Shown piece by piece: positions 10,087 through 63,761 of a DNA stretch of 64,000 nucleotides (within the stretch, counting starts at the first letter, position 1; each line of letters opens with the position of its first letter). A program made the position numbers and the translations under genes. The stretch is taken from positions 40,486,001 to 40,550,000 of the forward strand of contig NC_043004.1 in NCBI RefSeq assembly GCF_006345805.1, read 5' to 3'. The notes under the pieces were generated by a model. It did no database searches. It was not told the DNA's origin and saw only the letters and a program-made list of their open reading frames with translations. Origin of the DNA: Octopus sinensis (lineage: Eukaryota).

Positions 10087-10467
10087 TAAAGATCAGGAGA
10101 CAGCTACTAAATATTTGATCCATCAGTTATTTGAAGATAACATCCATGTTGTAATAGAAAATAGGGATTTGTACCCTAGCAGTTGGAAGATAGTGAAGGC
10201 ATTTACTGGCCTTGTGCCAAAATTTGAAGTCAATATTAAAATAACAATCTCTACCTGATAGACATATGTGACACTTTAAAGGATGGATTCCAACAGCAGA
10301 GTTAACATCAAAGACATGCCAAGAGCCAAGCCTTTACAACTTCACACTGAATTTAAGAGAATTGTTAGTCAGTTCACAAATTGTTATAATTTCTGGTCAA
10401 TACTTAAATGAACATTATTTACATTATTTACATTCGATGGATATTTGTCCTCATCTTGTTTGTTGTT

Positions 10468-10513
10468 AACACAACATTTCGGCTGATATACCCTCCAGCC
10501 TTCTTCAGGTGTC
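10468..10513 (-). ncRNA. Type I minimal hammerhead ribozyme motif (stem III CpG-decayed)
   Basis: GACAC-CUGAAGA-A-GGCUG(GAGGGUAUAU)CAGCC-GAAA-UG-U-U-GUGUU. Confidence 0.7.
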
Positions 10514-10755
10514 TTGGGGAAATTATCCCACTATGCCATATGCCCGTAGCATATGGCATAGTGATTAAAGTGCAGGCTACTTACCCTAAGATTCTGAGTT
10601 CCATTCCAGCAGTGACCTGAACAATAACAACAATAACAATGATAATAATAATAATAATAATAATAATAATAATAATAATAATAATAATAATAATAATAAT
10701 AATAACATCGAAAAATGCCTTAGGAATGAGAACCCAGATTCAAAATTTCCCCCAG

Positions 10756-10801
10756 GACACCTGAAGAAGGTTGGAGGGTATATCAACCGAAACATTGTGT
10801 T
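10756..10801 (+). ncRNA. Type I minimal hammerhead ribozyme motif (stem III CpG-decayed)
   Basis: GACAC-CUGAAGA-A-GGUUG(GAGGGUAUAU)CAACC-GAAA-CA-U-U-GUGUU; stem II covaries with the 10468 copy (C-G vs U-A). Confidence 0.75.
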
Positions 10802-11454
10802 AACAACAAACAAGATGAGGACAAATATCTGTCAAATGTAAATAATGTAAATAATGTACATAATTCTTCATCTCTTAAATGTAGAACTGACTTAAATGAA
10901 TGTTCCGAGATCAACTTTGTCTTACTTCCTTTTGCGAATTGATAAAATAAACACCAACTGAACACTGGAATCGGTGTAATTAACTTACCCATCATTCCAG
11001 GACTTGATGGCCTTGTGCCAAAATTTGAAATCATATTTAGATGAATGTTAATCCAGTTGGAAACTTCAATCCTCAGTGGAGATGTAGCAAAGATGGCTCG
11101 GCTTAGTGTAACATGATATTTGACAGCTCTGCAAAGGATTATAAAGTTTGTATGTTTTTTGAAACTTCTTGGAGAAATATGTCCTTGGGTGGAGATTAAC
11201 ACATAAATAGATTAGTAACATAATCCATTCTGGCCTGAATCTCCATCGGTTATAGCAACAAGTACTCCAGCTGATATAATCAACTGAATAGACTGCTAAT
11301 GAACGTAATTTGTAAGTGGCTGAGTACTCCACAGACACACATACCCTGAACATAGTTCTCAGGCAGATTCAGCATGACACAGAGTGTGACAAGGCCGACC
11401 TTTTGAATTATATATATATATATACATATATATATATATATATATATATATACA

Positions 11455-11620
11455 TATACATATATACGACAGGCTTCTTTCAGTTTCCGTCTACCAAATC
11501 CACTCACAAGGCTTTGGTCGGCCCGAGGCTATAGCAGAAGACACTTGCCCAAGGTGCCACACAGTGGGACTGAAGCTGGAACTATGTGGTTGGTATGCTA
11601 CTTACCACACAGCCACTCCT
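11455..11620 (-). mobile_element. SINE family A, 5' half, followed by a mariner TIR stub
   Basis: Same SINE/TIR junction as 4975-5206. Confidence 0.75.
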
Positions 11621-11928
11621 ATATATATATATGCATGTACCAGGTTGAGCCGAAAGTTTTTGCCAGCTGAGCAGACTAGAGCAATGTGAAATAAAGTACC
11701 ATGCTCAAGGACACAACTTCCTCCCAGGAATTGAACTCATGACCTTACAATTATGAGCCCTAGCCACTAAGTCACTAAGCTTTGTGACTTCTCATAATCC
11801 ATTCTACATCGACATGAAACAAACACAAATAAACAAAAACAAGATTCTCCTTTTCCTAGACATATAAATTAATTTTGAGGAATTAATTCTTAATTTCTTG
11901 AGTTTTTCTCCTGTTTGCTCTGAGATTT

Positions 11929-11968
11929 ACTAACAATTTCGACCATGCATGAGGCCATCTTCAGAGGG
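11929..11968 (-). ncRNA. Degenerate hammerhead motif
   Basis: CU-CUGAAGA-U-GGCC(UCAUGCAU)GGUC-GAAA-UUG-U-U-AG; stems I and III weak. Confidence 0.4.
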
Positions 11969-60149: not shown

Positions 60150-61604
60150 TCTAAAGTATAAACCAAATTACATATACACTCATATAAGTGTGGGTACATA
60201 CCCATAATAAATCATTTACATATATATATGAGTGCATATACTCATACTCTTATACATACACATATACATATACATAATAATACAAATAATATTATAATAA
60301 TAATAGTAATAATAATAATTATTATTATTATTATTATTATTATTATATAATATATATTAAATATACATGTAGAGAGGAAAAGAGAAGAAAAGAAAGGGAG
60401 AAAGAGGGAAATAGATAGAGAAAAACTGGTAAAGTGATAAAACTAAAAGAAAGGAGAAAAAAAGTACCTTCTTTAAATATATATTTATGTAAATATTGCC
60501 AAGTTTATCCATTAAGATGCCAATGTTTCTAAAATCTGAAAAACTTTCTTTGAAAACCTCAAAGCACAGAAACATACAAACAGTGTAGCTGGAAACATTG
60601 TGTGTGTGTGTTTGTGTGTGTATAAATGGATGGGTGTGTGTTCATGTTTGTGTTCGATCATGTATATACATATGTAAATAGAAGTAGTTATAAATTATAT
60701 GATGTAAAAATATTATACAGATTCGTATCTTTCTCTTTCCTCCTCCCTCCCTCCCTCCCTCTCTCTCTCTCTCTCTCTCTCTCTCTCTCTCTTATATAAT
60801 ATATATATATATATATAATATATATATATATATTAATATATATATATATTATATATATTATACATATATATTACATTATATATATATATATATATATATG
60901 ATGATTTTGATTTTTTGATTTGATTTTTCCAGTTTCAGCTTATACATTATATACATATATATATAATATACATATATATATATTATATATATATATATAT
61001 ATACATTATATATATATATATACATTATATATAATAATATATAATATACATTATATATATATTAATTTATATATATATAATATACATTATATATATATAT
61101 ACATATAATATACATATATATATATATTTATACACACACACATGCATGTGTGCATATATGCACACACAGATACACACGCATATGTAAATGCATATGCACG
61201 GCCACCCAGAAGAAATAACTAAGATCATGATGATCCCTCCAACCCATGCCAGTCTGGAAATCAAACACAAAAATGGTGATGGTATACATAAGTCTGTGTG
61301 CATGCATGCATGTCTGCATGTGTGTGTAACGTGAGAGAGAGAAAAGTCTATATATAGGATTTTACAAGAAACCTCGTTAGTAATTATAGACTTGAAAATA
61401 AAACTTCAGTTTATTAAGTCATCTGTCTTTTAAGAAACTAGTGCATTAACTATGCTCGCAACTAGAGTATTGTTTCAAGAGCTTGCATCATTTACTAGCA
61501 ATAAGAAACCCTGCAATCTATGTACCTTGGAATGTTTTGTTATATTATTTGCCAAAGATGTCAATGAAACGATTTTGCTTTATAGACATAGGTTTAAATA
61601 AAAA

Positions 61605-62007
61605 GGCGTAGGAGTGGCTGTGTGGTAAGTAGCTTGCTTACCAACCACATGGTTCTGGGTTCAGTCCTACTGCATGGCATCTTGGGCAAGTGTCTTCTAC
61701 TATAGCCTTGGGCTGACCAAAGCCTTGTGAGTGGATTTGGTTGACAGAAACAGAAAGAAGCCCGTTGTATATATGTATATATATATGTATGTGTGTGTGT
61801 ATGTGTGTATATGTTTGTGTGTCTGTGTTTGTCCCCCTAAACATCGCTTGACAACCGATGCTGGTGTGTTACGTCCCTGTAACCTAGTGGTTTGGCAAAA
61901 GAGACCGATAGAATAACTACTAGGCTTACAAAGAATAAGTCCTGGAGTCGATTTGCTCGACTAAAGGTGGTGCTCCAGCATGGCCACAGTCAAATGACTG
62001 AAACAAA
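61605..62007 (+). mobile_element. SINE family A, full length
   Basis: A/B boxes, CORE-like segment, tail. Confidence 0.85.
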
Positions 62008-63119
62008 TAATACAGTAAAATAGTAAAAGAGTACTCTGATGGTTGAAAAAAAATTGTGAATATGTTATAATATGATGCATGGATGCCAGGGAAGAATGTC
62101 CTGTGCATCACATGCATGTAAATAATACATGTGACCGGCCATGGGTGAACTTGCATAACTTTCATAACCAGTTCTGGTTAATACATGAACTGCATAATTT
62201 CACAATTACGCTGTGATTTTGTAAATGACATTACAAAGAGTGTGCCAAGTATATTACTTTGCTTCCACCTACACCTATTGACCCTTACTAACTTTGACTA
62301 TAGTCCCAACCCACACTATTCCTTTTGGTACTACCTTTAACATATCTCTGCCAATTAAGATCAATTATCGCATTGGAGACTTATCACCTAGATTATAATT
62401 ACAATCTTTAAATAAGATCCTTTTATAAGGTCTTAAATACATTTTTAAAGAATTTCTTTTTGGAAAGTCTTTTTATGCATCTCTTTATTAACATCATAAA
62501 ATATTCACATCCATTCTTCATATTCATACTCCAGTCTAATTTCCATTATTTTCTCTACCATTCTTAATCCATCTTCCCAATTATTTTCTCATCACCCCCG
62601 ACCACCGACATAAGTTTCAGTTGCCTGATTTACTCCAATCACCATTTAACTGCAATGATTTAATTTTTTAATTATTTGATAATTGAATTTAATTATTTCA
62701 TTACATAATTTTTTAATTACCCATAATTTGTTACAACTTGCAAGAATTACTCCCTTTTCAACCTTGTACAGTCATTAGCATACAGCTTCTTAAACTTACA
62801 TGCTCATACTCTACTTGTTTAGTCATATTTAACACTTCATTTTCATTAACTTAAGAGTGCATGACTTTATTCCCCACATTTTTCTTTCCTGTCTAATTTC
62901 AACACTTTTCTGCCAATAAATTGCTCCATATTTCATTCACATCCCTTTCACTTGTCCTACATTTTAATCTTGAATTCTAATTATACATCTTAATTTTTTT
63001 TTTAATTTGCCTTCTTTAAGAAACTGTCCTCTCCTTTAACCCTGGACTGACAAACCCTTGTGAGTGCATTTGATAGATGGAAGCTCATCGTATACATATA
63101 TATATTATATATATATATT

Positions 63120-63365
63120 GTGCCGGTGGCATGTAAAAAGCACCATCCGATCGTGGCCGTTTGCCAGCCTCGTCTGGCACGTAAAAAGCACCCACTACAC
63201 TCATGGAGTGGTTGGCGTTAGGAAGGGCATCCAGCCATAGAAACATTGCCTGATCAGACTGGCCCTGGTGCAGCCTTCTGGCTTCCCAGACCCTAGTTGA
63301 ACCGTCCAACCCATGCTAGCATGGAAAGTTGACGCTAAATGATGATGATGATGATGATGATGATA
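63120..63365 (+). mobile_element. RTE LINE 3'-UTR-derived copy
   Basis: Matches 4190-4414 and 20430-20626; (GAT)n tail. Confidence 0.85.
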
Positions 63366-63394
63366 TATATATATATATATATATTTATATAATA

Positions 63395-63545
63395 AGATAA
63401 AAATTGTTATGGCTAGTCTATGGGGTTACCCAGGGTTTCACATCCATAAGGTGCTTAGCTTTACAGCATCACCACCAGTCATTAGGGTCTGAAGAGACAC
63501 CATAAAGCTAAATGCCAATAGACTGGCCGTAACTGTCTTTATCTA
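63395..63545. mobile_element. Decayed palindrome with split hammerhead halves
   Basis: Right arm GGGU-CUGAAGA-GACACCAUAA; left arm (-) UUAUGGAUGU-GAAA-CCCUGGG-U-A-ACCC. Confidence 0.5.
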
Positions 63546-63726
63546 ATTACTCAACTGCTCTATAACTTAGAATGTGCTTCTCTTTCAGATTTACAATTTA
63601 CTGATGATATATATATATATATATATACAGTTAATCCAAACTTGAACAAGCAAGAAAAAGCAACATGAGGACGTGGAATAAGTACAGTGTTATTGGACGC
63701 TCAGGAAAGGAAAGAAAAGAAAGAGA

Positions 63727-63761
63727 ATTTCATGTTTCGAGCAAAGCTCTTTGTCAGAAAT
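63727..63761 (-). ncRNA. Degenerate minimal hammerhead (same family as 47076)
   Basis: AUUU-CUGACAA-A-GAGC(UUU)GCUC-GAAA-CA-U-G-AAAU; G8A and G17 predict inactivity. Confidence 0.45.

Follow-up and report, generated by a model that had tools for sequence, protein, structure and literature searches.

A 64,000-nucleotide (nt) stretch of the Octopus sinensis genome (the window; contig NC_043004.1, G000:C8:40486001-40550000 of 2.72 Gb) had been described, in a sequence-only reading, as carrying about 15 minimal hammerhead ribozymes in short palindromic elements. We found that these motifs are probably the leftovers of Penelope-like elements (PLEs): three families, A, I and J, represent the 3' ends of coding PLEs, and two others, C and E, are non-coding units that were probably moved in trans, family C most likely in the form of a circular RNA. 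As to how family C moves, we lean towards a recently active element in which a PLE reverse transcriptase (RT) dimer, placed at a break in a (TA)n tract, copies one circular 555-nt RNA by rolling around it from two sites that lie 119 nt apart.

The motifs are present at the places claimed, and 14 of the 15 sites fall into ten multi-copy families, the exception being 11929 on the minus strand. Families were defined by searching the genome with each site and aligning 9-31 copies per family; in agreement with the earlier estimate of about ten, the commonest form of each is a complete type I hammerhead. These forms keep C3-A9, G12-A14, A15.1-U16.1 and H17, with U3:A8 as a variant in family I and C4 in F, G and J. 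A palindromic stem III is also found in all ten, namely ACGU in A and G, ACAC-C-GUGU in C, ACGAUCGU in D, ACCAAUUGGU in E, ACUC-N-GAGU in F, ACAGCUGU in H and J, ACCGGU in I, and ACCC-W-GGGU in K. ACGU and ACGAUCGU, which had been deduced from decayed copies, are indeed the commonest forms of their families. Within the window, the copies at 23575(+), 39639(-), 60145-60023(-) and 52079(+) appear intact. Those at 10508, 10761, 29779, 46888, 47080, 48011, 48078, 51771 and 63727 are worn, often at CpG, and the motif at 63420-63520 has its halves split between strands.

A strict hammerhead descriptor, run with a helix II region of up to 50 nt or up to 130 nt, gave two and three hits in the window, respectively, where 40 shuffles averaged 0 and 0.025. 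In a genomic sample of 80 evenly spaced 10-kb stretches (799,800 bases), the narrower setting gave 13 hits against 0, 0 and 0 in three shuffles, and the wider one 16 against 3, 2 and 1. Hence the comparison with shuffled sequence proposed in the sequence-only reading comes out far in favour of real motifs (13 versus 0 in the sample). Helix III was palindromic in 13 of the 16 real sample matches, in a scan that did not require it. When positions 3, 4 and 8 were left free, position 3 paired with 8 in 16 of 21 matches (C:G 11, U:A 4, G:C 1), and a reversed control gave three matches, one of them paired. This pairing and the intact family consensuses answer the proposed check on core conservation and covariation; a cross-family alignment was uninformative. 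Chance look-alikes in AT-rich repetitive DNA would agree with the failure of most window copies under the strict descriptor (0 hits at the tightest settings), with the lack of a hammerhead among the 150 of 308 Rfam window matches listed and on an intact family A copy, and with the unsupported site 11929. In view of the shuffles, the 3:8 covariation, the unrequested palindromes and the intact family forms, we consider chance extremely improbable, and refuted for every site except 11929.

Extrapolation from the sample gives roughly 40,000 intact-looking motifs genome-wide. The motifs are thus a genome-wide population, of which the window is only a mildly rich sample, at most about twofold. The earlier description as dense holds in a modest sense: a relaxed scan returned 7 matches where 2.9 were expected from the sample (P 0.03). 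Family copy counts (20 in the 64-kb window versus 28 in the 800-kb sample) are biased, as the families were chosen from the window, and were not used. The adjacency to (TA)n was borne out, since 12 of 15 sites have (TA)4 or longer within 330 nt downstream, against a background of 36%; TA runs number 28.8 per 10 kb in the window and 16.6 on average in the sample. Most sites do lie in palindromes, 11 of the 15 being in inverted insertions by our reading of the window alignments.

The proposed tie to PLE machinery, with minimal hammerheads of the Penelope type, was upheld by PLE frames found upstream of families A, I and J. Frames were sought by tblastn with Hydra-, Neptune- and Penelope-type probes, which found none in the window itself. 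To judge by sequence, the three families are 5'-truncated 3' ends of coding PLEs of the Penelope/Poseidon (A), Neptune (I) and Hydra (J) types. In family A (10408..10890, both strands), the window holds a head-to-head insertion of such a 3' end, with an (AAT)n tract and cores at 10508(-) and 10761(+), the ACGU of helix III being CpG-decayed in both. An endonuclease frame lies upstream of the hammerhead in L009. A search based on the endonuclease picked out 25 loci, of which 23 have the A hammerhead behind it in the same orientation and several have an RT. Both the RT and the endonuclease frames are broken, and from their motifs we take the element to be of the Penelope/Poseidon type. These upstream endonucleases (23/25 loci) overturned a classification of family A, which has 11 matches in the 800-kb sample, as a short interspersed element (SINE). 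Its 3' untranslated region (UTR) contains tRNA-like A and B boxes (10549-10627 in the window; L009, L344-L367), and many copies start right at them. ARAGORN found no tRNA in 8 loci and Rfam gave no tRNA match on the head, so the label tRNA-like refers to the A and B boxes only. Starts at the boxes may reflect a SINE offshoot driven by RNA polymerase III and mobilised by PLEs, or a hairpin that strongly arrests the RT.

Family I (51690..52185, both strands) consists of head-to-head 3' ends of a putative Neptune-type element. Its core, UUGAAAA (U3:A8), is combined with helix III ACCGGU; the copy at 52079(+) has the family form and that at 51771(-) is damaged. The core at 52079 is the regular one and not a decayed form, with U3:A8 in 15 of 15 aligned copies. 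Three of 20 loci reach an RT-GIY-YIG frame, which is open over 721 amino acids (aa) in L318 and has an atlas match to HTH_animal/GIY-YIG of 0.98. A CxxxxCxxC linker and CCHH-like residues suggest the Neptune type, a label given by motifs and not by a tree. Family J (59797..60229, minus strand) is a 5'-truncated Hydra-type 3' end with a long 3' UTR. Its hammerhead is intact, with core CCGAAGA, a 100-nt helix II region and helix III ACAGCUGU. The core of the motif reported at 60023(-) lies at 60145, beyond this helix II region. Upstream of family J, at least 1.8 kb is non-coding, and a Hydra-type endonuclease follows about 2-2.5 kb away in older copies (same strand in L397-L399, L401 and L402; only the endonuclease was seen). 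This endonuclease led us to reject family J as a non-coding unit. We also found a worn Hydra-type hammerhead that had been overlooked (59270..59385, near 59375, minus strand), 77% like the terminal repeat of an intact Hydra-clade element present elsewhere in the genome.

That element has open 717-aa frames in L093, L107 and L113, 97-99% alike. It displays RWK, DKT, CxCx5C and CxxC/CxH, no CCHH, a terminal-repeat hammerhead with core CCGAAGA, and a (TA)n target, a set that matches the Hydra-clade motif list of PMC8557442. Family J and the 59375 motif belong with this type. Coding PLEs that end in the hammerhead were found for A, I and J, and family C has no clear terminal-repeat match. The Hydra 717-aa (L093, L107, L113) and Neptune 721-aa (L318) elements are candidate recently active PLEs. 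The three PLE frames returned no Pfam family and no matching solved structure, and the hammerhead in L113 has an extra U before GAAA.

Family C is of a different nature. In the window, an inverted piece (22995..23121, minus strand), which stops at internal site S1 (unit position 192) and is joined to (TA)n, is followed by an array (23121..23941, plus strand) of 1.48 head-to-tail units that stops at S2 (unit position 307) in (TA)n. The array includes an intact type I hammerhead (23569..23640, plus strand; helix III ACAC-C-GUGU), with a predicted cut after 23634. The unit measures 544-558 nt and closes head-to-tail, up to 3.5 units in a row. Copies are 0.8% diverged, and the 25-nt ribozyme motif has 103 exact copies genome-wide against 0 for the control. 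The unit folds better than each of 100 shuffled versions (z -3.6), and among young copies the ribozyme hardly varies. Public runs contain contigs of 555 and 549 nt that close on themselves, although the runs are only presumed to be RNA and tandem DNA gives the same joint; in the 549-nt relative, the helix III palindrome differs and is changed on both arms (ACAU-AUGU). Each frame contains at least two stops in 14 units, so no endless reading frame is present.

We considered the proposal that all families are truncated terminal repeats of coding PLEs, with no independent non-coding elements. This is true of A, I and J, and perhaps of H. Against it, family C closes head-to-tail every 544-558 nt with all six frames stopped, family E repeats at 460-490 nt, and no sense PLE frame lies upstream at any of 35 family C loci or 26 family E loci; as a general explanation it is quite improbable. 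At the DNA level, family C has the features that define non-LTR (non-long terminal repeat) retrozymes and family E nearly has them, to the extent that sequence can tell.

Family E (39450..40260, both strands) appears as a non-coding, circularly permuted unit with inverted pieces. Its hammerhead is intact (39639-39570, minus strand; helix III ACCAAUUGGU), the unit shows terminal redundancy at 460-490 nt, and all frames have stops. Two complete tandem ribozymes were not seen in the copies examined. Zeta-virus-like circular RNAs have endless reading frames, and the stops in all frames rule out such an RNA for either C or E.

The ends of family C insertions are not random. Among the 32 insertions examined (the pairs L027/L013 and L028/L014 each being taken as a single insertion), 28 3' ends lie at unit positions 176-192, 17 at 307-311 and 4 elsewhere, that is, 45 of 49 at two sites. 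Both sites are AT-rich, distant from the cut (0/555), and nearly all of the ends are joined to (TA)n; truncation points do not cluster at the cut. Seventeen insertions are two-ended; in 13 of them both ends fell at these sites, one end at each site every time, and the other four have one end elsewhere. By our arithmetic, this one-of-each pattern would have a probability of about 5e-5 if the sites were chosen independently. The same rule was followed by the Hydra element at 7 of 7 loci (+30-43 and +107), by family A in 9 of 9 (about +62 and +93), by I in 4 of 4 and by J in 2 of 2. In each family, the ends thus lie at one or other of two fixed positions downstream of the ribozyme, mostly next to (TA)n. 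Family A has no TA targeting, and its tail of about 30 nt is of the usual length.

These data indicate that the outward palindromes are by-products of insertion. Their centres differ among family C copies, and the two ribozymes of each palindrome lie on opposite strands, an arrangement in which neither can be the dimer partner of the other within one transcript. PLE insertions are known to combine a one-sided tail with an inverted copy (PMC8557442, PMC3846280). In vitro, the tail marks two internal start sites of the RT, a protein that is predicted to dimerise and to cut both strands (PMC11167929). We infer that twin priming explains both the outward palindromes and the opposite-strand ribozymes. 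The sequence-only reading had regarded all families as non-coding retrozymes moved in trans, with the palindromes as part of the mobile unit or as the source of dimers. Families C and E, and only these, fit the non-coding part. Families D, F, G, H and K could be added to them, as no reading frame was found within 1.3 kb upstream of these five (21-39 loci each), bar a weak match for H, and most of 20 family G copies begin close to the same position. The absent frames also weigh against our own view of the motifs as PLE leftovers, yet they are not decisive, because a UTR as long as that of family J can hide one. For A, I and J, which appear as coding 3' ends, the proposal is refuted, and the variable centres of C and the opposite-strand ribozymes speak against its account of the palindromes. 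Taken as a whole, we find it quite improbable.

The template of family C left its own record. Twenty-two of the 32 insertions are longer than one unit and run across the cut, and four exceed two units. At 8,347 positions read in at least two passes, a variant is present in every pass at 36 and in only some passes at 61. Of the 36 pass-wide variants, 23 occur in both orientations, 16 are private to one insertion and 12 are both; those spanning the orientations came from 10 insertions. Independent mutation would yield under one pass-wide variant, again by our arithmetic. Because the variants are pass-wide, private and found in two orientations, we take one monomer sequence to have served all passes and both primers. 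This fits a single-monomer template, as a circle would give.

In the cycle that we propose, a dimer of the PLE RT/GIY-YIG protein would break an AT-rich target on both strands, and each broken strand would prime complementary DNA (cDNA) synthesis, one at each of the two internal sites. Joining of these cDNAs at their truncated 5' ends would leave an outward palindrome and a one-sided tail. For family C, tandem transcripts would be cut to monomers and ligated to circles, and the RT could run up to 3.5 times round one circle, from both primers. The most likely partner is a Hydra- or Neptune-type element, as both are TA-joined and have open frames in this genome.

Cutting is predicted to need two head-to-tail ribozymes or help from the protein. 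As hairpins, the helix III sequences have calculated energies of -0.9 to +6.0 kcal/mol (family E being marginal at -0.9), and ACGU can form none; as duplexes, they reach -1.7 to -13.0 kcal/mol. Dimers are predicted because helix III should hold together as a duplex but not as a hairpin, and this modelling agrees with the earlier view of minimal hammerheads that can cleave as dimers. Head-to-tail units of family C could supply it.

Several points weigh against this account of family C. At 119 nt, its tail exceeds the 30-40 nt described in the literature, and head-to-head palindromes have been ascribed to self-priming on an antisense template (PMC3846280). Compared with PLE terminal repeats at the loci examined, family C gave at best 77% identity over 53 nt and nothing clear. 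Poseidon in vitro inserts from uncut RNA, and ribozyme mutants are without effect; its ribozyme needs the element's protein and is dispensable for insertion (PMC11167929). Eight of nine Xenopus retrozyme dimers did not cut (10.64898/2026.07.22.740005), and the poor cutting of PLE ribozymes in vitro (PMC4209133) further cautions against over-reading. Finally, the 61 positions at which only some passes vary have to be accounted for, and in L036 and L029 a change is common to two passes, which would imply later duplication or a multimer template. A partner search with the family C tail returned only family C copies.

Much of this could be accommodated if family C were moved by a PLE from linear RNA, either uncut multimers or monomers between which the RT jumps, with the ribozyme as a passenger. 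In vitro, insertion proceeds mainly from uncut RNA (PMC11167929), some variants are common to two passes only, and 32 insertions were read against 103 exact motif copies, so that a variant that we call private may stem from an unread array. Later conversion, or uncut multimers from a homogeneous array, are possible sources of pass-wide variants. On the other hand, new changes would still require a one-monomer bottleneck, with 12 private variants present in both orientations, and a passenger role does not sit well with a ribozyme that is nearly invariant in young copies and whose palindrome is kept in a diverged relative. We regard a linear template as possible, though doubtful, and retain the circular one as our working explanation.

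The coding families belong to a known kind. Families A, I and J carry the terminal hammerheads of endonuclease-positive PLEs, a kind already published, and the bulk of the motifs is known litter of PLEs, in a genome for which we found no ribozyme survey. Like the metazoan PLE hammerheads described by Cervera and De la Pena (2014; PMC4209133), those in the octopus are of type I with a short stem I, include a U3:A8 variant, have a palindromic or absent helix III and a bulge after A9 (here in families A and G), and occur as thousands of solo copies, with opposite-strand pairs 100-700 bp apart and few copies beside frames. Unlike those in the available text of that paper, they include C4 cores (CCGA in F, G, J and the Hydra element), C.A or U-A at the base of helix II (C, E, H) and helix II regions of 85-100 nt (D, J). 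Such natural variants (C4, U3:A8, C.A at helix II, 100-nt helix II regions) show what descriptors and Rfam miss. In the main texts searched, we found neither a cephalopod ribozyme survey nor mapped retrozyme insertion ends. A paper on Octopus vulgaris repeats reports 31 recently active Penelope-like families, and the word ribozyme is absent from its main text.

The 717-aa element shares its motif set, terminal-repeat hammerhead and (TA)n targets with the Hydra clade (Craig et al., 2021; PMC8557442). With the Neptune and Penelope/Poseidon clades, among them Poseidon of Anolis (PMC11167929), the octopus elements share the order of RT then GIY-YIG, two tail-defining start sites, AT-rich targets and an inverted 5' piece. 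Family A differs from Neptune and Poseidon, as described there, in the tRNA-like promoter boxes of its 3' UTR. Chlamys elements such as MRC1 (PMC8557442) are likewise non-coding PLE passengers with head-to-tail insertions; those of the MRC1 type resemble the 3' ends of their partners, and the Chlamys clade mostly lacks hammerheads.

With the non-LTR retrozymes (Cervera and De la Pena, 2020, PMC7229834; Li et al., 2026, 10.64898/2026.07.22.740005), family C shares non-coding units that repeat head-to-tail and carry a single type I hammerhead, low GC content, a size within the 51-972 bp range, and PLEs alongside. Unlike the retrozymes described, it lies in short (TA)n insertions of one to four units with PLE twin ends and a tail. 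Internal start sites and pass-wide variants, absent from the retrozyme text available, were mapped here. Homology to PLE terminal repeats, reported for 24 of 57 Xenopus retrozyme families (PLEs being 21 of 22 elements matched), was not clearly found for C at the loci examined. Rolling-circle copying of retrozymes by a PLE enzyme is a stated hypothesis (PMC7229834, 10.64898/2026.07.22.740005) that dates from 2014, and the mobilisation of animal retrozymes is called open (10.64898/2026.07.22.740005). Family C makes this hypothesis directly testable, since it is young, has mapped start sites, a one-of-each rule and pass-wide variants, and shares its genome with open-frame PLEs. If our account is true, its insertions have captured the step that was missing from the retrozyme cycle.

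The other families in the window are mostly worn. Family D (29663..29920) is a palindromic insertion with a core at 29779(+), a helix II region of about 85 nt and a worn helix III (ACGAUCGU in the family form). Family F (46775..46947, plus strand) is a small insertion in which an inverted tail joins at stem I; its window core is worn, the family form being CCGACGA. In most family F copies (L118-L137), the inverted piece ends right at the predicted cut or shortly beyond it, with its junction at stem I, and two copies cross the cut. Run-off from cut RNA and joining via stem I complementarity are both possible explanations of this stop. Family G (47006..47214, plus strand) is an element of about 250 nt with a minimal hammerhead at 47080, helix III being mutated in the window, and has a second, worn copy at 63629..63827 (minus strand). 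Family H (47867..48219) is a palindromic insertion with worn cores at 48011(-) and 48078(+) and helix III ACAGCUGU. It is perhaps a Hydra-type 3' end, as suggested by one weak match (E 6e-7) at an inconsistent distance, and a third partial copy lies at 49977-50171. Family K (63390..63604) is a rearranged palindromic insertion with hammerhead halves on opposite strands. At site B (11920..11975, minus strand), the 5' half of a hammerhead (core, helix II and GAAA) is present without stem I. As stem I has only 2 pairs, we do not accept the hammerhead proposed at 11929(-); the 39 other genome matches all start beyond the core, from query position 64 onwards, and the six that were aligned lack it.

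Some minor features of the ribozymes and units were also observed. The base of helix II is unusual in three families, with C.A in C and E and U-A in H. The odd palindromes differ between copies in their centre base, which changes to its complement (A/U in F and K, C/G in C); occasional inversion of helix III would have this effect. Family C arrays spaced 542-545 nt (G000:C19:8157255-8159570, C1965 and C8:32284445-32285559), with up to four direct units, may represent a shorter subfamily. The segment 23863-23902 of the family C tail, which forms the left side of a strong hairpin located between the start sites, is also present in other public-run contigs and is a possible RT-binding signal.

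The window is repeat-rich in general. It contains a broken long interspersed element (LINE) at 17093-19535, with Pfam matches to an APE endonuclease and an RT, and transposase-like fragments near 44400-45300 and 53650-55280 that we presume to be mariner-like. A degenerate CAC-rich long repeat and a 23-bp satellite (41.6 copies) occupy 27581-28888 and 57271-58226. Finally, a local duplication (49103-49876 and 51018-51790, 1,915 bases apart) takes in part of the family I copy.

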